In this document: one piece after another, positions 19,247-59,997 of the stretch | Numbering within the stretch: position 1 is the first letter of the stretch | Layout of the letters: every line of letters starts with the position of its first letter | Assembly: GCA_965287045.1 (NCBI GenBank) | Contig: OZ336882.1 | Span: 64,666,001-64,730,000 of the forward strand | Source: Carcharhinus amblyrhynchos | Taxonomy: Eukaryota | Direction: 5' to 3' | DNA: 64,000 nt | Made by a program: the position numbers and the translations under genes | The notes under the pieces: generated by a model | Told to the model about the DNA's origin: nothing | What the model saw: the letters and a program-made list of their open reading frames with translations, nothing else | Databases searched by the model: none

Positions 19247-20952
19247 TAACTGACAAATCTGTTAGCGTTCTTGGATGAGGTAATAAGGAAGTTCAATAAA
19301 GGAGAACCAGTGGACATGATTTATTTCCATTTCCAGAAGTTCTTTGATAAGGTGCCACATAGGAGACTGTTAAATAAGTTAAGTGCCCACAGTATTAAGG
19401 GGAAGATCCTGGAACGGATAGAGGATTGGTGGACTGGCAGAAGGCAGAGAGTGGGGATAAAGGGATCTTTTCAGAATGGCAGCCAGTGATTAGTGGTGTG
19501 CCTCAGAGGTCGGTGCTGGGACCACAACTTTTCACAATATACATTAACAATTTGGAGGAAGGAACTGAAGGCACTGTTGCTAAGTGTGTAGATGATACTA
19601 AGATATGTAGAGGAACAGTAGTATTGAGAAAGTGGTGGGCTGCAGAAGAGTTTGGACAGATTAGAAAAGTGGTCAAAGAAGTGGCAGATGGAATACAATG
19701 TGGAGAAGTGTGAAGTTATGCACTTTGGAAGGATGAATGAAGGCATAGACTATTTTCTAAATGGGAAAATGCTTAGGAAATCAGAAACACAAAGGGACTT
19801 TAGAGTCATTGTTCAAGATTTTCTTAAGGTTAGCGTACAGGTTCAGTCAGCAGTAAGGAAGGCAAATGCAATGTTAGCATTCATGTCGAGAGGGCTAGAA
19901 TACAAGAGCAGGGATATACTTCTGAAGCTCTGGTCAGACCCCATTTGGAATATTGTGAGCAATTTTGGGCTCCGTATCTAAGGAAGGATGTGCTGGCCTT
20001 TGAAAGGGTCCAGAGGAGGTTCATAAGAATGATAATAAGAACATAAGAACACAAGAACTAGGAGCAGGAGTAGGCCATCTAGCCCTTTGAGCCTGCCCCG
20101 CCATTCAATAAGATCATGGCTGATCTGAAGTAGCTCAGTTCCACTTTCCCGCTTTCTCCCCATAACCCTTAATTCCCTTGCCTACCAAAAACCTATCTAC
20201 CCGTGTCTTAAATATATTTAGCTAGGTAGCCTCCACCACATCAATGGGCAGAGAATTCCAGAGATTCACCACCCTTTGAGTGAAGAAGTTCCTCCTCAAC
20301 TCCGTTCTAAACTGCCCCCCGCCCCCTTATCTTGAGGCTGTGCCCTCTAGTCCTGCTATCCTTTCTGAGCGGAAAGAATCTCTCTACCTCCACCCTATCC
20401 ATCCCCTTCATTAACTTATACGTCTCTATAAGATCCCCCCTCATCCTTCTAAACTCCAACGAGTACAAACCCAGTCTATTCAGCCTCTCATCATGATCCC
20501 TGAAATGAGGAGCTTGTCGTATGAGGAACAGTTGATGACTCTGGGTCTGTACTCATTGGAGTTTAGAAGGATGAGCGGGAGTCATATTGAAACTTACAGG
20601 ATACTGCAAGGCCTTGATAAAGTGGATGTGGAGAGATGTTTCCACTAGTAGGAAAAACTAGAACCAGAGAACACAACCTCAAGTTAAAGAGACGATCCTT
20701 TAAAACAGAGATGAGGAGGAATTTCTTTAGCCAGAGAGTGGTGAATCAGTGGAACTCTTTACCACAGAAGGCTTGGAGGACAGGTCATTGCATGTCTTTA
20801 AAACAGAGATAGATAGGTTTGATTAATAAGGGGATCAGGGGTATGGGGAAAAGGCAAGAGAATGTGGATGAGAAAAATATCACCATTGAAAGGTGGAGCA
20901 GACACGATGGGCTGAGTGGCCTAATTCTGCTCCTATGTCTTATGGTGTTATG
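19247..20952 (+). mobile_element. CR1 insertion (middle layer)
   Basis: [37 protein letters not shown]; ends in the tail ctcctatgtcttatggtgttatg. Confidence 0.9.
20034..20492 (-). mobile_element. Young CR1 3' end (inner layer)
   Basis: Same subfamily as 8268-9248; splits host FIRMIPEMR with atgat repeated at 20029-20033 and 20493-20497. Confidence 0.9.
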
Positions 20953-23488: not shown

Positions 23489-23751
23489 GCAGGACGGTGG
23501 CACAGTGGTTAGCACTGCTGCCTCACAGCGCCAGGGAGCCGGGTTCAATTCTGGCCTTCGACACCACTTGTGTGGGGTTTGTACGTTCTCCCCATGTCTG
23601 CGTGGGTTTCCTCCTGGTGCTCCAGTGACCTCCCACACTTCAAAGATGTAGCGGGTTAGGTAAATTGGCCTTAAGTGTGGGGTTAGAGAGATAGGGCCTG
23701 GCTGGCATTGTTATCGGTGCAGGCCTCCTTCTGCACTGTAGGGTTTCTATG
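23489..23751 (+). mobile_element. HE1/V-SINE
   Basis: ggacggtggcacagtggttagcactgctgcctcacagcgccaggg head, V-domain and ctgcactgtaggg.ttctatg tail. Confidence 0.9.
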
Positions 23752-23840
23752 TTGTGGGTATGCCGGCGTTGGACTGGCGTAAACACAGTAAAAAGTCTGA
23801 CAACACCAGGTTTTAGCCCAAACGATTTATTTGATAATAG

Positions 23841-23880
23841 ACTCACAAGCTTTCGAGGTTTCCCTCTTCGTCAGGTGAAT
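23841..23880 (-). ncRNA. Minimal type I hammerhead ribozyme motif
   Basis: Exact reverse complement of 24230-24269. Confidence 0.75.
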
Positions 23881-24229
23881 GGAGAGTTCTGGCCTCAGAC
23901 AGAGCATATAAAGCACAGACAGTTTAGAGATTACTGATTAGAATGCGAATCCTTACACCTAACCTGCTGTTCAAGACCTGAAGTGGCTGACAATGTGAGT
24001 GGAAGGAGCACTGATCACAGGTTACAGAGATGTGTATTGTCTCCAGACAGTACAGTAAGTGAGGTTTTGCAAATACACATCTCTGTAACCTGTGATCAGT
24101 GCTCCTTCCACTCACATTGTCAGCCACTTCAGGTCTTGAACAGCAGGTTAGGTGTAAGGATTCGCATTCTAATCAGTAATCTCTAAACTGTCTGTGCTTT
24201 ATATGCTCTGTCTGAGGCCAGAACTCTCC

Positions 24230-24269
24230 ATTCACCTGACGAAGAGGGAAACCTCGAAAGCTTGTGAGT
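24230..24269 (+). ncRNA. Minimal type I hammerhead ribozyme motif
   Basis: Stem I AUUCAC/GUGAGU; core CUGACGA plus extra A; stem II GAGG-GAAA-CCUC; GAAA; palindromic AAGCUU stem III; predicted cut after U24263; AATAAA at 24279. Confidence 0.78.
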
Positions 24270-24529
24270 CTATTATCAAATAAATCATTTGGGCTAAAAC
24301 CTGGTGTTGTCAGACTTTTTACGGATTCTATGTCTCAGAGGATCAATCTGAGCCTCTGGATTGCTAATCCAGTGACACTGAAGCTTCACCTCCACCTCCC
24401 AAGACATTTTAATTTACAATGGGTAATTCCCCTGCTGCACAGGACCCTCCACATGTCTTTGACTCTGAGTTGGAGATGTACCCTTCAGGCAGTTCCGTGG
24501 GAATGTTAGACAGAAAAGTCTTAATCTAA

Positions 24530-31182: not shown

Positions 31183-31765
31183 GTGTATGTGAACCTGAGT
31201 GTGTGTGTNNNNNNNNNNNNNNNNNNNNNNNNNNNNNNNNNNNNNNNNNNNNNNNNNNNNNNNNNNNNNNNNNNNNNNNNNNNNNNNNNNNNNNNNNNNN
31301 NNNNNNNNNNNNNNNNNNNNNNNNNNNNNNNNNNNNNNNNNNNNNNNNNNNNNNNNNNNNNNNNNNNNNNNNNNNNNNNNNNNNNNNNNNNNNNNNNNNN
31401 NNNNNNNNNNNNNNNNNNNNNNNNNNNNNNNNNNNNNNNNNNNNNNNNNNNNNNNNNNNNNNNNNNAGGTTAGAGAGTGAGTGTGTGTGTGTGAGTAGGT
31501 TAGAGAGAGAGTGTGTGTGTGTAGGTTAGAGAGTGAGTGTGTGTCAGTGTATGGTGTGTAGGTTAGTAAGTGTGCATGTGTGTGTAGGTCAGAGAGTGGG
31601 TGTGCATATGTGTGTGAGTGTGAGAGTTAGTGAGTGAATGTGAGTGAGTGAATGTGTGCAGGTGAATGAGTGTGCACGAGGGAGCATATGTAGGTTCGTG
31701 AATGTCTGTGCATGTACATGTGTGAGTGACTGTGAAGATGAGTGTGTATGTGTGTGTGTGTACAT
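31183..31765. repeat. Compound (GT/GA)n microsatellite spanning the gap
   Basis: gtgtgt/gagtga runs with recurring aggttagagag. Confidence 0.9.
31209..31466. other. Assembly gap (258 N)
   Basis: Run of N. Confidence 1.
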
Positions 31766-44590: not shown

Positions 44591-46938
44591 AGCTCGTACT
44601 TTTTAAATTGAAATTGAAGGCGAAGTCCATGTTTTTTTTTCTATTTCATGGCTTCATTTAAGCTTAATGCTCTAGTTTGGACTTACTCACATCACTTGTG
44701 AATGCACTGTCAAATTCCATCATATTGTGATCATTCTTTCCCATAGAATCACTTATTGTGAGATTAACCCACATTTATCACATAAGACAAGATCTAAAAT
44801 AGTTTCCTCCCTGATTGGTTCCATTACATCTTGTTCTGGAAAATTGCTTAGAATATGTTCCATGGGCCACCTTCAAACTACTTTTAAGGGGAATCTGCAA
44901 TTTGTTTTGTCAGATCCAGGTGAAGGTTAAATTCTGCCACATGTATTGCATTGCCTTTTTACACGCTCTTATTATTGCTCGATTAATACTCTGTCTGGCA
45001 ATATTACTACTGCTAAGGGGCCGATAATTTTCACCCACCACTGGTTTCTTTCCTTTCCTATGCTTTACCTTCACCCACACTGATTATACATACTGCACAA
45101 GATCCTTACTCACTACAGTCATGCTTTATTATCCCCCAAACATATTCACTGTTTCTGTGTTGTATACCCAATATATTCCTATGTAATGTAATTGTGTTTG
45201 TCTTCAACTACCCTGGAAGGTTAATCAAATGCTGAACAATATTAGGCACTGGATTGGACAGTGGACGAAGTCACCATTGCATTAATTCTTCAGGATGTAG
45301 ATATCCTACAAGGATAAACAGGTTCAGTATCAATCTACAAATCCTTCCAACGTAGGCCAATAGCAGGTTGTAAGAGTGAGAGAAATGACTTGTCCAGCCA
45401 CATGTTGGGAAGAAAATTGAACCTTTCACCATCACTATTCATAACTCTGAACTGCTATATGCATATAAAAGTGCATGTTGCCTTGGCTACCAGATCCCTT
45501 GGGGTGGAGAGTGGGAGTAGGGGGAGTGTCTTTGGTTGGACAGCCAGAGTGGATCAGATTGGTGTCAACAGCACAGGGTTCATTGCCCATTCCAGCAAGG
45601 GTGGATTTGGGGATTTGTTGATGTTTTACCCCTGGTGGAGATCTCAATGCCAAGTCAGACCTGCCTTTGGGCAGAGAACTAAAGAAGAAGGAAATTATCT
45701 TACACGGTATATCACAGATGTTGGCTATCTAGAATTTCATTAAAAGACAGCTGAAGCCTAGCAAAATTGTACAATGCCAAATTGTATGAACCCTCGGCCA
45801 GCGAAATTTGAAAAGTTCAGAGCTGCTTATATTCTAAGTCAATTCACTACACTGGCCATCGAAAGTGAAAATGAGACCTTTGCTGTTGCCTCAGGGTTTG
45901 GGTCTGGCCCTTTGACAATATTGTACAGGTCTTTGAAGGCAGGAGTCATCTTCTCCAAGACATGTTGGAAATGATGGGGCTACACCCCACACCTACACAA
46001 ATCCACTTGACCTGTTGAAGATGCCACTGCACTAATCGGGAACATATTTCTCTTTCCAGTCATTTATATGATGAGCAATGCAACGTTGCCAGAATAAACA
46101 AGCCAAAGATTCTTTCACTAATCTGCTGAAACTTTATGCATAGTCAGTATTTGCATGCAGCAGCCAAATCACAAATATGTAAGTATAGACTAAGCAAAAG
46201 ATGGAAAATAAAAGCGCTGTTACAACAAAGGACATTAAAAGCAGATGTAAAACACACCCTGTTTGAGATTAAGTGAGGAAACAGCTCAGATTTACAAGAC
46301 TGTTTTTCAATTAAACATGAATAGGTCACTTTAGAAGCTACGGGTATTGTAAAGGTAAACTAAATGATTGAGCAAATTATTCCTACAAACAATTATGTTA
46401 CAGGATAATAGATTGGAAGATTTGATGACCTGGCACGCCAAATAAAAGATGCAGGCTCGGGCCATGAAATAAGAAAAGACAAGACTATAGATACAGATCA
46501 GTGTCTGAACACAGAAAAGATGGACTCGCTGAAGATTTTAGCTGAAGATTCTTCATCAGACCAAATTCTCAGTTCTAACAAAGATTGGTCCACACAAAAT
46601 GGCAGCATGTATTCTCTCCATTCAAACATCTGGTGGATTGTTCTGGACTACAAGCCACTACTAACCTTATTTCAGATTTTAAAAAGCAAAGTTCAATAAT
46701 ACTTGAAAACAAGAGGAGGGATCACAATACATGATTAAACAGTAGCCACTGTTATTGATATAGGCAGAAGGCAAACCTTATGCTCATTTGAATGATTGCA
46801 GAGCGCATCCAGTGCTATAATCCTCAGCTCCACTTTCCCGCCTTATCCCTGTAACCTTGATTCCCTTACTGATTAAAAATCTGCCTATCTCAGCCTTGAA
46901 TATACTTAATGACGCAACCTCTGCACTAAAGAATTCCA

Positions 46939-46966
46939 TGATGTGGGTATGTGGGTCAGACTTTTT
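46939..46966. mobile_element. 28-bp collapsed remnant of a family A PLE fold-back with a perfect 14-bp TSD
   Basis: actaaagaattcca at 46925-46938 and 46967-46980; the insert tgatgtgggtatg..gtcagacttttt matches the two outer ends of 23752-24322. Confidence 0.75.
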
Positions 46967-47080
46967 ACTAAAGAATTCCACACATTCACTCCCTTCTGAG
47001 AAATTCCTCCTCATCTTGGTATTTTTTTAGTCTGCGATTACGCCGTCTGGTCCTAGGCTCTCTCACAAGCAGAAACATCT

Positions 47081-47217
47081 AGGTAAAGGCAAAATACTGT
47101 GGCTGCTGGAATCTGAAACGAAAACAGTAAATGCTGGAAAATCTCAGCGGGCCTGGCAGCATCTGTGGAAAGAGAATACAGCTAACATGTTGAGTCTGGG
47201 TGACCCTTCATCAGAGA
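47081..47217 (-). mobile_element. Family B PLE terminus with decayed hammerhead
   Basis: Minus strand ctgatga-a-gggtc-accca-gactc-aaca (GAAA mutated); imperfect TSD agaaacatct/ggaaatatct. Confidence 0.7.
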
Positions 47218-47324
47218 GGAAATATCTGCCATGTCAAGTCCTGTCTCAGTTTCATTCTTCTAAACTCCAGCAGGTGCTAGATGTCGTTCCCGATGTAAAT
47301 TTGATCTGGGAACAAACAAGGATT

Positions 47325-47400
47325 AACATGGCAGAGAGAAAGCCCAAAGTTCTCTGACACAGCATTGGAGGCCCTGCTGGAAGAGGTGGACAGGAGTAAA
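47325..47400 (+). mobile_element. Harbinger-associated Myb-like gene, 5' fragment
   Basis: MAERK/PKFSDTALEALLEEVDR. Confidence 0.45.
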
Positions 47401-47479
47401 CAGGCCCAATTATACACAGGAGACTAGAAAGCCCTCCAAACAAACACCAAAAAAGTTGTGCAACTGTTTATACAGCTTA

Positions 47480-48080
47480 ATGTAGCCCTGAGGCATTTGA
47501 TAAAGTGCCACTCACACGGCTTGCCAACAAAGGTGAAGTCCATTGAAAGAAATAGACAAGAAGCTGGCTGGGTGACAGGGAACAGTGTACCAGTGAATGG
47601 TTGTTTTTCAGACTGGAGAATTGTGATGTCCTCCAGGGGTCGGTCCTGGGGCCACTGCTTTTCTTGAGATATATTAATGAACTAAACATGGATGTATAGG
47701 CACAATTTCAAAATTTGCAGATGACATATGTTTTGCAAATTAAGACGAGCATAGTGATGGACTTCAAGAGGACATTAGCTGGTGAAATGGGTAGACAGTT
47801 GCCGGATGAAGTTTAATTCCGAGAAGGATGAAGTACATTTTGGCAGGAAGATAGAAGAGGCAATGAGACAATATAAACCAAAGAGTACAATTCTCAAGAG
47901 GATACAAGAGCAGAGAGGCTTTGGGGTATATATGTACAGGTTGTTAAAAGTGGTGGGGCATGGTGAGAAAATGGTTATAAAGATATACGGGATCTTGGGC
48001 TTTATAAGCAGAGGCATAGAGTCATGACAAATCTTCATAAAACATTGGTTCAGTCTCACTATAATATTGTAGCACTGCTG
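47480..48080 (+). mobile_element. Decayed CR1 RT fragment
   Basis: AFDKVP, QGSVLGPLLF, KFADD, MKFNSEK..VHFGRK. Confidence 0.85.
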
Positions 48081-48820: not shown

Positions 48821-50228
48821 TTCACAAGCATACCAATGTGAAGGGAAAACAACAATTTATACCATATGAGAAGACAATGCTGATTGTCGAAAAGTAGACT
48901 CTGACTTTCACATGCAATGCATTCGCACCTTACAGTATCGGAGGGCCATAAGAACAACCTAGACATAAAGCTGACAAAGGGATATAGTCACCCTTACCAA
49001 GCCTGACAGTATCAACAAAATGCACTTCAATCTTAATGTTCGGTCCAAATTCATATCAATTGGACCTTCAGCTCACAATGACTGGATAGCCTTGCTCAAA
49101 AATAAATTTAAAAATTGTTTGGTGCACTTGTGTAAGAGTGATAAGTTGCCATGAAACATTTATGACAGGCTTCACCCTCATAGCTTGTTGTGTCTGCCTG
49201 AGACACGCAAATCCGATGGCCCTTTATGCCCTACCCTATCTATGACTGCTGCATATATCATGAACTGGCCACATGGTCGGGGTACAATGGTTTGCTATAT
49301 TTAATGTGCATGTCGGAATTCCCTTACCTGTCTTAATGGGCTCCATCCTGTGCTCAAATTCACCTTTGAAATGGAGCAGCCAAAATGAGCTTCCTTTCCT
49401 TGACACCTAGTTAGGAAATCTGTCATGGGTTCTCTACTATTGTCCACAGCAAGCTTATCTTCACTGGTCAATATACAGGTTGGGATTCCTATAGTTGCAC
49501 ATGCTGGATTGGCCTTATTGGCAACCCCTCATTAATAGGGCCTGAGGCCTGAAGCTTGATGCTGAAATAGGGGACATCAAAGCCATCCTGTGGGACAATG
49601 GCTACTCTGATCAGATTGCTGGATCTCACACAAACTTATGAACAGGCCTACGGCTGCCACTTATTTGCCCAGTCGACCTCAGAATACCCTGAAAAGGTAA
49701 GGTATATCAAAAATTTGGGCAACAGGTGAAACTAGCTGTTTCACACTGATACTTTGCAGTAGCAACACGAGTGGTATTCACCACTAACAAGATGCTGCTG
49801 TCAAGTCAAAAAAAATTCCACCTATCGCACAAATTAGTAATGTACTGTTTGAATTTCAGTGCCAGTGTAATGCATGGTTTGTCGGCTGTATGTCCCAAAG
49901 ACTATCAAGTAGCATGTCCCTTCCACTGTGAGCATAAGGTAAGGTACAAACCGTAACCAACCAGCCCTTGCTTGCAAAACTCAAACTTTAGATGTGATTC
50001 CTCGATTGGACAACATTTGCTAAATAATCCCCAGTGTGTTAAGAATTACGCTAGCAACCAATGTAAGATTGTCGGTCAAACTCGCAGCGTGATGTTGGAA
50101 GTGGCATCTATGAATACACGGGACCCTGTTCTTTGCGGACAGGAAGAACATGTGCACACATTGTTCCTGTTTCAACTAAACAAAATAAGCAACTACCATT
50201 CGCTGCTTCATTCTTCTTGTCCAATCAG

Positions 50229-50430
50229 GATGTGGAGATGCCAGCATTGGACTGGAGTGGGCATCAGGTTAAAATCTAATAGGTTTATTTGGAATCACGA
50301 GCTTTCAGAGGACTGCTCCTTCCTCAGGTGAGGAAGGAGGAAGGACTTACCTGAGGAAGAAGCAGCGCTTTGAAAGCTCATGTTTCCAAATAAACCTGTT
50401 AAATTTTAACTGGTGCGGTGAGACTTCTTA
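50229..50430. mobile_element. Short head-to-head pair of family A-like PLE termini with ~13-bp TSD
   Basis: cttgtccaatcag (50216-50228)/cttgaccaatcag (50431-50443); hammerhead motifs at 50295-50331 (-) and 50347-50383 (+). Confidence 0.8.
50295..50331 (-). ncRNA. Minimal hammerhead motif
   Basis: UCAC-CUGAGGA-A-GGAG(CAGUC)CUCU-GAAA-GC-UC-GUGA; core intact, CUC cleavage triplet. Confidence 0.6.
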
Positions 50431-52049
50431 CTTGACCAATCAGAGTCAAGCTCTGTTTCAAATTTCAAAAAGCAGTCAACTGTCAGTCACCTGGTGGATT
50501 CTCCATAGCAACACCTATCAACATCCTGATTGGACAAGAGGAATGAAGCAGCGAATGGTAGTTGCTTATTTTGTTTAGTTGAAACAGGAACAATGTGTGC
50601 ACATGTTCTTCCTGTCCGCAAAGAACAGGGTCCCGTGTATTCATAGATGCCACTTCCAACATCACGCTGCGAGTTTGACCGACAATCTTACGTTGGTTGT
50701 TAGCGTAATTCTTAACACACTGGGGATTATTTAGCAAATGTTGTCCAATCGAGGAATCACATCTAAAGTTTGAGTTTTGCAAGCAAGGGCTGGTTGGTTA
50801 CGGTTTGTACTTTACCTTATGCTCACAGCGGAAGGGACATGTTACTTGATAGTCTTTGGGACATACAGCTGACAAACCATGCATTACACTGGCACTGAAA
50901 TTCAAACAGTACATTACTAATTTGTGCGATAGGTGCAATTTTTTTTGACTTGACAGCAGCATCTTGTTAGTGGTGAATACCACTCGTGTTGCTACTGCAA
51001 AGTATCAGTGTGAAACAGCTAGTTTCACCTGTTGCCCAAATTTTTGATATACCTTACCTTTTCAGGGTATTCTGAGGTCGACTGGGCAATTTATGGAACG
51101 AGAAGTGGCAGTTAGCGTCCACTTGCCAAACCATCAGTTCTCCCTTCTTATACTGTATAGATTGTTTTTCTCCCCCTCATACTGGTATTCTTGCAAAGTG
51201 TCCTGATGAATGCAAGATAAAAAGCTTTGGCGTGTCTCTTTCTTCAGCAATACTAAATTCTGTACTCCCAAACGATTACTTATTTTATCCCTATAAATGA
51301 AGTGATTATTAAACTTTAAAAACCTAGAGTACCTTCCAGCAACTAACATGTGGAAAGGCTAAATGTGACACTAAGTTGTATTGTTTTTGGCACAGAGCTT
51401 TAAGCCTCCAGTTATACATGGGCCAAAGTGACATTGATGTGCTCTGCCTTGGTGCCTGAGCAAAATGGCGTTCACGTCTGGTGTTTCTTAAAGGTACAGA
51501 CCAGCACCTTCCAATCTTTCTGAATCGATGCAGATTAACCCATTTTGGACTTGTGCCTGGTTTGACTCATCCCCAGTTTTACCAATTCTTGGGTTGGCCA
51601 CTAGATGGAGTACCATCTTAAAAGGGCATTTTCCTCTTTCAGCCCTAAGGCAAAACATTGCCAATGATGGAAATGGGAAATAAAATCAAAAATAGGAATG
51701 CTGGAAAGACTCAGCAGGTCAGGCAGCCTCTGTGGAGAAAGAAACAGAGTTAACAATCGGGTAGATGGCCAAGGCATCAGAACTGAAGGAAAGTAGAATT
51801 ACTAAACAAGGAGAATTGGGGTGGGTGAGGATGTTGGTGGTGGGGGGAAGGGGAGGGGTGGGAACAGGAAGAACAAAAATGAATCTCTGTGATAGGGTGG
51901 AGGGCAGGTAAGATTAAGAACAAAGAACAAAGAACAACCCAGCACGGGAAACAGGCCCTTCGGCCCAACAAGCCCGCGCCGCCATCTTAACAAAATATTT
52001 CATTATCCAACAGCCAAAGAGAGTGGTAATGGGTATAGAAAAGAAACAA

Positions 52050-53088: not shown

Positions 53089-54622
53089 TCACAAAAGGCT
53101 GTGCTGATACAGTTGTCAATGCAAAAAGCAGCAACGATACAGTTGTCAATGTAGTACCGATACAGTCATCAATGCAAAAGTGCTGCTGATACAGTCACCA
53201 ATGAAACATGGATACAGTCGTCAGTGAAACACCAAAACGGTCCTCAATGCAAAAAGTAACAATGATACAGTCATCAATGCAAAAAAGCAGTGACGCTACA
53301 ATTGTCAATGCAAGAAGCTGCACAGATACGGTCATCAATGCAAAAAGCTGCATGGATACAGTCGTCAATGCAAAAAGCAGTGTGGATAAAGTCATCAATG
53401 CAAAATGCAGGGATGATACAGTCATCAATGCGAGGAACAGCACCGATAGAGTCTTCAATGCAAAACACAGTGACAATGCAGTCATCAATGCAAAAAGCAA
53501 GGACGATACAGTCATCAATGCAAAATGTAGTGATGATACAGTCAGCAATGCAAAACGCAGTATTGATACACTCATCAATGCAATACGCAGTGATGATACA
53601 GTCATCAACGCAAAATACGGGGAAGATACAGTTGTCAAAGCAAAAAACAACACTGATACAGTTGTCAATGCAAAACACAGTGACGATACAATTATCAATG
53701 CAAAACACAGCACTGATACAGTCATCAATGCAAAACGCAGCACTGATCCAGTCACCAATGCAAAATGCAGGGATGATACAGTCATCAGTGCAAAAAGCAG
53801 GGATGATACAGTCATCAGTGCAAAACACAGTGACGATACAGTCATCAATGCAAAACGCAGTGATGACACAGTCATCAATGCAAAACGCAGTGATGATACA
53901 GTCATCAATGCAAGAAGCAGCACTGATACGATCATCAATGCAAAACACAGGGGTGATACAGTCATCAATGCAAAACACGCGGATGATACAGTTGTCAAAG
54001 CAAAAAACAGCACCAATACTGTCGTCAATGCAAAATGCAGTGATGATACAGTCATCAATGCAAAACACAGTGACGATACAGTCATTAACGCAAAACGCAG
54101 CACTGATACAGTCACCAATGCAAATCACAGCACTGATACAGTCATCAATGCAAAATGCAGTGACGACACAGTCATCGATGCAAAATGTAGGGATGATACA
54201 GTCATCAATTCAAAACACAGTGACAATACAGTCATCAATGCAAAACGCAGTGACGATACAATCATCAATACAAAAAGCAGCACTGATACAATCATCAATG
54301 CAAAATGTAGGGATGATACAGTCATCAATGCAAAACGTAGTGACGATACAATCTATGCAAAACGCAGCACTGATACAGTCGTGGATACAAAACACAGTGA
54401 CAACACAGTCATCAATGCAAAACGCAGTGATGATACAGTCATCAATGCAATAAGCAGCACTGATACAATCATTAATGCAAATCGCGGGGATGATACAGCC
54501 ATCAATGTAAAACACGGGGATGTTACAGTTGTCAAAGCAAAAAACAGCTTCAATACAGTCGTCAATGCAGCAGTGAAACAGTTGTCAGTGCAAAAAACAG
54601 TGCCAGTGCAGTCATCAATGAA
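53089..54622 (-). repeat. 30-bp minisatellite, ~50 units, derived from the Penelope RT catalytic motif
   Basis: Unit (-) attgatgactgtatcagtgctgcgttttgc = IDDCISAAFC; the first unit is the RT's own FIDDCTGTVFC at 54622-54590. Confidence 0.92.
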
Positions 54623-55064
54623 TCAAAAAAAAATGAGGAAGAGAGCCCAGATACGATTGAAATAGTGAATGTTTCACGTAAGCCACAAAAAAAGTATGCA
54701 TAACTAGGAGCCAATAGCAATAGCTTTTATTTGGAGGAAGTGAGTGGAGTTAAAGAAGTTGTTCAGAGTGAGAATAGGTTGAGTCAGTTAGAGGAGGATG
54801 GGAATGGTGAATGGGACAGGTTCAACAATCCAAGAGGCAGAGAGCTCTGAGCCTATCCTGATGTGGGTGGAGGTGCAGAGAGATGGAATGTCCGTAGTGA
54901 TGAGGAAATGGTTAGGGTCTGGGAAACTGGAACTGCTGAATTGACATAGGGCATCGGAGGAAGCGTTTGTAGTTTAAAGTTTATTTATTAGTGTCACGAG
55001 AAGGCTGACATTCAAAAGGAGAGAAAAGAAAGGAGTCAAGTTCGGAAGGGCAGCCTTGGTGTAG

Positions 55065-55450: not shown

Positions 55451-55584
55451 TGACTCTCTGGCAGTGCAGCACTCCCTCAGTACTGACCCCCTGACAGTGC
55501 AGCACTCCCTCAGTACTGACCCTCTGGCAGTGCAGCACTCCCTCAGTACTGACCCTCTGGCAGTGCAGCACTCCCTCAGTACTG
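55451..55584. repeat. 33-bp tandem repeat x4, SINE-derived
   Basis: Unit tgaccctctggcagtgcagcactccctcagtac; the core matches the SINE body near 48220. Confidence 0.9.
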
Positions 55585-55760: not shown

Positions 55761-55772
55761 TTGTTACTTTTT

Positions 55773-55955
55773 GCGAGGATTCTGACTTAGATACGTTCAG
55801 TCATAATCCCACAGATGGTATTTTCGCGCCATTAGCTCTTCAACCAAGCACATACACCAAATGTCTGAACCTGCGGTTCTTCTCGTACTGAGCAGGATTA
55901 CTATTGCAACGCCACTTTGTAATCATCAGTAGGGTAAAGCTAACCTGTCTCACAA
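55773..55955 (-). pseudogene. 28S rRNA 3'-domain fragment (pseudogene)
   Basis: Reverse complement reads gtgagacaggttag.tttaccctactgatga...gtaatcctgctcagtacgagaagaaccgcaggttcagacatttggtgtatgtgcttgg...ccatctgtgggattatgactgaacg; includes the sarcin-ricin loop agtacgaga.gaac. Confidence 0.92.
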
Positions 55956-58300: not shown

Positions 58301-58691
58301 TTCTATGATTCACTTTGACCTATTCTGTATGGTGTCCTTCCTCAGCCCTTCATCTAGGTTTCTCTAGTGATTCTCTGATATTCAGTTTGTTCCTTCAGTC
58401 AATGTTGTTGGCAAGACTTTTATTGGACTCAATGGTAGAGACCCTTTGGTATCATCAAATAGGGGCTTCAGCACTTTAGGAAGTGAGGCTTACCTTTCCC
58501 TCAGCAGTTTTCTTTCCCTATCCTGGACATTATGATTCATATTGAGTGACAGCTACCGAGGGATCAGTACTTCTGTTACCTAATGTGCCTGATGCTAAAA
58601 AGATGAGGAAAAGAGGGTTGTGTTTTTATAATGACATTAGGGCACCAATCACTCATAAGGGATTGTGCAAGCAGGCTGAGGGCTTGTTTAT

Positions 58692-59997
58692 TAAGAAAAG
58701 GCACATTGATCAGGAATAGTCAGCATGGTTTTGTCAAGGGCAGGTCGTGCCTTACGAGCCTGATTGAGTTCTTCGAAAATGTGACTCAACACATTGACGA
58801 AGGAAGTGCAGTGGACGTGGTGTACATGGACTTCAGCAAGGCGTTTGATAAGGTCCTCCATGCAAGACTTCTTGAGAAGGTGAGAGGGCATGGGATCCAA
58901 GGGCCTTTGGCCTTGTGGATCCAGAACTGGCTTGCCTGCAGAAGGCAGAGAGTGGTTGTGGATGGGTCTTTTTCTGAATGGAGGTCAGTCACCAGTGGAG
59001 TGCCCCAGGGATCTGTTCTAGGACCCTTGCTGTTTGTCATTTTCATAAATGACCTAGATGAGGAAGTGGAGGGATGGGTAAGTAAGTTCGCTGATGTCAC
59101 GAAGGTCGGTGGTGTTGTGGATGGTCTGGAAGGATGTCAAAAGTTGCAGCAGGACATAAATAGGATGCAGGACTGGGCGGAGAAGTGGCAGATGGACTTC
59201 AACACGGATAAATGTGTAGTCGTCCATTTTGGCAGAACCAATGGGATGAACGAGTACACTATCGAGGGCAGGAGTCTTAGTAGTGTTGAAGAGCAGAAGG
59301 ATCTTGGGGTCTGGGTCCACAGGACTCTTAAATCGGCCTCGCAGGTGGAGGATGTGGTCAAGAAGGCGTATGGTGTACTGGCCTTCATTAATCGAGGGAT
59401 TGAGTTTAGGAATCGGGAGGTAATGCTGCAACTTTATAAGACCCTTGTCAGGCCTCATTTGGAGTACTGTGCGCAGTTCTGGTCACCTCACTATAGGAAG
59501 GACGTAGAAGCTATTGAAAGGGTACAGAGGAGATTTACAAGGATGTTGCCTGGACTGGGAGGCATGCCTTATGAAGTTAGGTTGAGGGAGCTGGGACTCT
59601 CTTCCCTGGAGAGACGAAGGTTGAGAGGCGACCTGATAGAAGTTTATAAAATGTTGAGTGGAATAGATAGGGTGGATTCTCAGAGGCTATTTCCCCGGGT
59701 TGAAATGGTCGCTAAGAGAAGACACAGATTGAAGGTGCGGGGAGGCAAGTACAGAAGTGATGTTAGGGGTAAGTTTTTCACTCAGAGGCTGGTGAGTGAA
59801 TGGAATCGGCTGCCGTCAGTGGTGGTGGAGGCGAACTCACTGGGGTCTTTTAAAAGACTTCTGGATGAGTATATGGAATTTAATGGGATTGGGGGTTATA
59901 GATACGTCTATTGATTGGTAGGTGTTGATGTGATCGGCGCAACTCATGGGCCGAAGGGCCTGTTTGTGCTGTAGTGTTCTATGTTCTATGTTCTATG
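58692..59997 (+). mobile_element. Young 5'-truncated CR1 with an uninterrupted ~400-aa RT fragment
   Basis: SQHGFVKGRSCLT...SGVPQGSVLGPLLF...KFADVTK (catalytic DD changed to DV)...FFTQRLVSEWNRLP; tail (ttctatg)3. Confidence 0.96.

Follow-up and report, generated by a model that had tools for sequence, protein, structure and literature searches.

A 30-bp insert holding the two outer ends of a Penelope-like family, possibly left by aborted priming from both DNA strands

The window analysed here, i.e., the whole 64-kb stretch of DNA, is eukaryotic repeat-rich DNA, shark-like in its repeats, with LINE-type reverse transcriptase fragments. At 46925-46980, a target site duplication (TSD) encloses two fragments of the same element, which point in opposite directions and each come from a putative priming site. 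This locus raises the question of whether such a two-ended micro-insertion was made directly at integration or is the scar of a longer copy that lost its middle. The articles cited below were accessible in part, and what is said of them refers to those parts.

The 14-bp word ACTAAAGAATTCCA is found at 46925-46938 and again at 46967-46980, on both sides of 28 nt, as the original prediction had described. The AC that closes the right end of the element also forms the first two letters of the second repeat copy, and the host-repeat paralogs seen in contigs of public runs join straight onto TAAAG at 46969, where they are preceded by different letters. For these two reasons, it is safer to read the TSD as 12 bp around 30 inserted bp (46939-46968), and to count the remaining 2 nt as an overlap with the element end. 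The features of the locus are the following:

46812-47020, no strand: high-copy interspersed host repeat carrying the insertion
46927-46938, no strand: left copy of the TSD, 12 bp (46925-46938 if the 2-nt overlap is included), a word that occurs once in each of six host-repeat paralogs within the window
46939-46951, minus strand: outer 13 nt of the PLE tail, matching the left ends of the other family A copies
46952-46954, no strand: 3-nt filler, which completes an exact 8-nt tandem repeat (46941-46948 / 46949-46956)
46955-46968, plus strand: final 14 nt of the pLTR, reaching the proximal start site; identical to 24309-24322
46969-46980, no strand: right copy of the TSD, an exact direct repeat

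The 13 nt of the left part have one mismatch to 23750-23762 and two to the minus strand of the copy lying at 1073-808, a fourth family member that the original prediction did not mention. The proposal that both parts match the respective ends of an element at 23752 is therefore borne out, with one mismatch on the left and none on the right; only the start of this element has to be corrected, to 23750. The insert keeps a third of the 38-nt tail, 25 nt of which are missing, and has neither inverted repeat nor hammerhead, nor any notable fold (z 0.96 and -0.28). It shows no sign of a host function. In the copies examined, CA or TA precedes the left end (46937-46938, 1074-1075, 23748-23749), and the true left end of the element may extend 2 nt further and overlap the target. 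The host repeat, whose depth corresponds to thousands of copies in each of four public runs, lacks in this copy some 10 nt immediately left of the TSD (46920-46926) relative to the six paralogs; this loss may be older than the insertion or part of it.

The window holds four copies of the family concerned, family A, which range from 30 to 573 bp and have no open reading frame. Besides the 30-bp insert, they are:

808-1073, no strand: one-armed copy, with a 38-nt tail at 1036-1073
23750-24322, no strand: long copy, 573 bp, with the tail at 23750-23787 and the arms at 23788-24038 and 24072-24322
50229-50431, no strand: short and more diverged copy, 203 bp, with arms paired at 56 of 65 positions

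In the long copy, the arms are paired at 250 of 251 positions around a 33-nt centre that is not palindromic. An inverted 5'-truncated copy lies beside the pLTR in this copy and in the one at 50229, and is absent from the 30-bp insert and from the 1073 copy. The 38-nt tail is found at one end of the 23750 and 1073 copies, 13 nt of it being present in the 30-bp insert. The long copy is flanked by an 8-bp TSD with one mismatch and the 50229 copy by a 12-bp repeat with one mismatch, which may not be a true TSD, the word being present twice in the outer element that surrounds it; no TSD was found for the 1073 copy. A search of both strands of the 64 kb with a hammerhead descriptor (core boxes, helix II, helix I and NUH) gave three sites, all within family A: minimal hammerheads at 24236 (plus strand) and 23874 (minus strand) in the long copy, and a hammerhead at 50327 (minus strand) in the 50229 copy. 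Their predicted folds give helices I and II as expected. Rfam reported no hammerhead in the whole window, where its sole match was a piece of 28S rRNA, and found just two chance-level matches, none of them a hammerhead, in 24180-24340.

An inverted truncated copy, a one-sided tail of 30-40 bp and a short TSD are described for PLE insertions (PMC8557442, PMC3846280; see also PMC8969392 for insertion marks), and a minimal hammerhead in the pLTR is a described mark of these elements (PMC4209133). Because it combines these four features, family A, known here from its non-coding ends, has the appearance of a terminal part of a Penelope-like retroelement (PLE). Pattern searches for short two-end copies in public collections of metagenome and genome contigs, and for the general tail pattern in metagenome and viral contigs, gave no match; as these collections do not contain the family, the zeros carry no information. 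Its resemblance to the endonuclease-containing PLE insertions (Arkhipova et al. 2013, PMC3846280; Craig et al. 2021, PMC8557442) includes the inverted truncated copy, the one-sided tail, of 38 nt here, and the short TSD, and family A carries the same minimal motif as the pLTR hammerheads (PMC4209133). However, the copy at 46939 is reduced to two terminal stubs of 13-14 nt, and no such minimal form was found in the accessible text of PMC3846280 and PMC8557442. The PLE type and the asymmetry of the tail are already known. The original prediction noted three insertions with nearly the same asymmetric end points; these ends are indeed common to the copies, but their asymmetry is not new, since it corresponds to the 30-40-bp tail described for PLEs in the sections accessible (PMC8557442, PMC3846280). 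A MITE or the footprint of a DNA transposon was considered and rejected, as the two termini are different words and the inverted repeat begins 38 nt inside the left end.

The matches at 46939-46968 are just 13 and 14 nt long, and a local duplication whose random filler happens to resemble both ends could be put forward on this ground. A control by shuffling had been named beforehand. The window was shuffled 200 times with its dinucleotides preserved, and the end words were taken from the other three family A copies only. The left word with at most two mismatches, followed within 40 nt by the right word with at most one, was found in none of the 200 shuffles, for a chance expectation of about 1.5e-4 per window before any TSD is required. 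With looser thresholds, pairs occurred in 1 of 200 shuffles (2/2 mismatches) and in 5 of 200 (3/2 mismatches). In the real window, 46925-46980 is the sole site that fits the pair of end words. Furthermore, a scan of the whole window for exact direct repeats of at least 12 bp with a spacer of 10-60 nt gave 44 pairs: 39 fall in two regions of tandem arrays and were set aside, 4 are part of a 33-bp tandem array at 55456-55580 and the last one is this TSD. The order, orientation and register of the two words are all correct at both edges of the TSD, which makes a chance origin hardly credible. The matches to both ends are above chance, in agreement with the claim that an independent family A insertion kept only its two outer ends here.

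For the origin of the 30-bp insert, we lean towards priming of both strands, an early abort and end-joining at the time of integration. On this view, 46939-46951 would be the cDNA that the top-strand nick primed from the distal start site, the sense strand of the PLE being minus here, and 46955-46968 the one that the bottom-strand nick primed from the proximal start site. An endonuclease would nick both strands 12 (or 14) nt apart, as deduced from the TSD. Reverse transcription would then be primed by each 3' end, with one cDNA begun at the distal site and the other, 38 nt away, at the proximal site; two start sites around an RNA stem-loop were shown in vitro for the anole element and are assumed for family A. 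In the usual outcome, both cDNAs would extend across one and the same pLTR, and the product would be a fold-back whose tail is one-sided, like the copies at 23750 and 50229. In the present case, a 9-bp stem would have halted both cDNAs: the first at its base, after 13 nt, and the second at its entrance, after about 14 nt. End-joining at 2-3 nt of microhomology, perhaps accompanied by a short templated repeat, would finally have united the two stubs, followed by filling of the gaps. Such a scheme would require no palindrome at 46925-46980. The long fold-backs would be the same event with longer cDNAs, which would explain the intact outer ends, the variable middles (573, 203 and 30 bp) and the non-palindromic centre, and the 30-bp insert would be the short extreme of this range. 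What supports both-strand priming is that the TSD and the outer ends are intact and that only the middle varies.

Work on the Poseidon element of Anolis carolinensis (Frangieh et al. 2024, PMC11167929) provides the closest biochemical parallel, as its protein was shown in vitro to cut both strands of the DNA and to extend them, and its tail is delimited by two start sites of reverse transcription located in an AC-rich stem-loop. The ends of family A appear to fit this geometry. However, the accessible part of this study does not derive inverted copies from both-strand priming and describes no aborted genomic products; it leaves the later steps of PLE integration unvalidated. TSD-bounded pairs of inverted short cDNAs are also known from twin or dual priming by L1 (Meyer et al. 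2010, PMC2837659), in which one or both of the opposite cDNAs can be very short and little microhomology is seen. By contrast with these L1 products, the insert at 46939 has neither poly(A) nor L1 sequence, and the primers of family A would start at fixed internal sites close to the RNA's 3' end, giving fold-backs as long products rather than inversion-deletions.

Inverted PLE copies were explained earlier by self-priming on an antisense template (PMC3846280). From this published explanation, it could be proposed that a self-primed fold-back was then skipped or, more generally, that a palindrome was removed by hairpin bypass during second-strand synthesis or by replication slippage. A hairpin like that of the 23750 copy spans position 39 to the last base, so that its bypass should leave the 38-nt tail in place and eliminate the right end. 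The opposite is observed at 46939-46968, where 25 nt of the tail are gone and 14 nt of the right end are kept, and the insert has no inverted repeat or notable fold, as seen above. Skipping of the hairpin during second-strand synthesis, one of the two origins suggested by the original prediction, is argued against by this geometry, and we consider hairpin bypass improbable.

The other suggested origin is the later deletion of a palindrome: a full fold-back would have inserted, its palindrome would have broken by cruciform or hairpin cleavage, and, after resection of both sides, end-joining of the polymerase-theta type would have sealed the break, with 13 + 14 nt and a templated 8-nt repeat remaining. 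The young copy of family A is a near-perfect palindrome (250/251), and the junction repeat looks templated, as in alternative end-joining (Chan et al. 2010, PMC2895639), which likewise makes short insertions copied from the flank at joins with 2-3 nt of microhomology. Alternative end-joining is a process of break repair, however, and on this likeness the broken integration intermediate and the palindrome broken later are not distinguished. Microhomology-mediated deletions were reported to disable rotifer PLE copies (PMC3846280), which favours later collapse and counts against both-strand priming. Nevertheless, such a deletion would have to cross 25 nt of non-palindromic tail and halt within 13-14 nt of both ends while sparing the TSD, and the 4-nt microhomologies common to the tail and the right end were left unused. 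Collapse of a full fold-back is the main rival, and appears to us as a possible but less likely origin.

Both-strand priming and later collapse can also be confronted with other short copies. Contigs of four public runs (X4, X21, X22 and X10, picked from 22), whose unique flank diverges from the window by roughly 1%, 1.5%, 3% and 6%, respectively, were aligned to 46400-47500. In all four runs, the unique flank contigs end at 46845 and 47140-47161, short of the insert site, and neither a long nor an empty allele was read there. At least 8 indel rows cluster at 46950-46954 among the best 12 of 20 rows. All 8 of those listed are reproduced by clean joins of a left end to a right end, of 26, 29, 31, 32 and 33-34 nt, with 0-2 nt of microhomology and with the inserted letters that the family ends predict, the scoring of the aligner being assumed. 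Ordinary single ends with perfect flanks halt at 46951 or 46955 in five of six scoring schemes, and cross the junction too under the sixth (1/-1/-1). The clipping of contigs, checked by hand, indicates that a mismatch costs at least as much as two matches, and this sixth scheme was excluded.

By depth, X4 gives 102.4 = 16 + 14.6 + 71.7 (5 contigs), for a single-copy depth near 16, and X21 gives 64.1 = 27.5 + 26.5 + 10.1 (6 contigs), for a single-copy depth near 9. According to these sums, no contig of X4 or X21 holds the exact junction of the window. This would agree with an artefact of assembly or library in which the assembly of the window collapsed a long palindrome or gained one extra G. 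However, an assembler has no overlap by which to join the two stubs, similar joins apparently occur in three independently assembled runs, and a hole in contigs proves nothing; X22 keeps 8.9 depth units that are tied to no listed indel, and the depth of 0 of X10 at 46950-46954 is likewise no evidence. An artefact is judged very unlikely. In X4, about 15 depth units, i.e., one copy's worth, cover 46950-46951 and not 46953. This one-copy step fits either a longer allele at the site, as later collapse would have it, or a chance paralog.

Further two-end joins of 26-34 nt are probably present in three of these runs, as deduced from indel labels and depth sums, and other short two-end copies probably exist because there are more join classes than one locus can hold. 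The original prediction would have been refuted if no other collapsed copies existed and the end matches arose at chance frequency, which does not seem to be the case. Some of the 29-nt rows could be mutated single ends. Counting breakpoints from the tail end for the left part (L) and from the inner end for the right part (R), four of the five inferred join classes break at L13. The P value of this clustering among detectable joins is 0.001-0.016, varying with the weighting of microhomology, and 0.006-0.05 if the 29-nt class is left out. Of the five detectable joins that have at least 2 nt of microhomology, three break at L13 regardless, and the best deletion product (35 nt, with 4 nt of microhomology) lies outside the detectable set. 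Beyond a shared TG, later collapse leaves the recurrent left breaks at L13 unexplained.

The position of these breaks can be compared with a predicted RNA structure. The sense 3' ends of the 23750 and 1073 copies share the same predicted 9-bp stem, in which R14-R22 pair with L22-L14; the two copies differ in it by one U-G/U-A change, and in the diverged 50229 copy, 2 of the 9 pairs are broken. The pair probabilities are 0.79-0.98 in 81-nt folds and about 0.53 in a 201-nt fold. A similar stem is predicted in single-stranded DNA (-5.4 kcal/mol), and hence the stem is not specific to RNA. The breakpoints of the insert lie at the predicted borders of this stem, on the left at its base (L13|14) and on the right at its inner border (R12-14). 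Both-strand priming has to be read with some caveats here: the match to the stem was noticed post hoc and its folds are not above shuffles (z -0.83 and -1.29), just as the other joins are inferred and neither an empty nor a long orthologous allele was read. The filler at 46952-46954 may be a templated insertion; a 29-nt join at 2 nt of microhomology followed by two later changes would explain it as well.

A wider and more tentative reading is that PLEs routinely prime both nicked strands at two fixed sites and that the 9-bp stem acts as a stall checkpoint. Hidden TSD-flanked inserts of 26-34 bp, with a left break at 13 nt, would result from this, and the 8-nt repeat would come from a telomerase-like realignment by the PLE enzyme, on the 3-nt terminal redundancy of an 11-nt template, instead of host repair. 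Against such a realignment, 3 of the 64 possible fillers are templated over at least 8 nt, i.e., match or exceed the observed repeat; the 8-nt tandem repeat is absent at the three other family A left ends; and the 29-nt join with two changes suffices.

The new elements are the 30-bp form, made of the two start sites alone, and its use to discriminate both-strand priming from self-priming, neither of which was found in the literature searched, from which most subscription journals lay outside. Within the same scope, no paper on PLEs using the terms 'twin priming' or 'dual priming' and no paper on the structure of shark PLEs were found, and neither inverted nor minimal copies are discussed in the accessible part of a 2026 retrozyme preprint (10.64898/2026.07.22.740005). 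The support consists of one locus that was read and several that are inferred. Two-ended micro-insertions would be a direct product of both-strand priming, whereas self-priming would need an extra deletion, and these models could be told apart, with no further experiment, from their number, breakpoints and orthologous alleles. Collapse scars, if this is what they are, would give the rate at which the long perfect palindromes made by PLEs are purged from vertebrate genomes. Either way, they would provide markers nearly free of homoplasy, putatively too short for ordinary repeat libraries, and it is plausible that such short copies escape repeat annotation, as had been suggested.

Several other features were observed in the surrounding DNA. 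A larger fold-back at 49665-51089, with arms paired at 563 of 572 positions, belongs to a second PLE family. Its arm translates to a broken stretch (SNVLFEFQCQCNAWFVSC) that we take to be GIY-YIG-like, and Pfam gave no match on the one open frame scanned in this fold-back. The family A copy at 50229-50431 lies at its centre, yet looks older (arms paired at 56/65 versus 563/572); a joint insertion of two templates, or a later homogenisation of the outer arms, could account for this arrangement. Nested diverged inverted repeats at 20042-20952, paired at 74-78% and centred near 20507, consist of the same host repeat as at 46812-47020, in both orientations. The tandem array at 53163-54665, which is open in several frames on both strands, is probably a minisatellite. 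An isolated 28S rRNA fragment of 148 nt was located by Rfam at 55763-55910 (minus strand), and an assembly gap at about 31200-31470 (258 N in the window) has simple repeats on both sides. Finally, a 435-aa open stretch at 58607-59914 (plus strand) matches Pfam RVT_1 (E 2e-23) and corresponds to a fairly intact fragment of a LINE-type reverse transcriptase.
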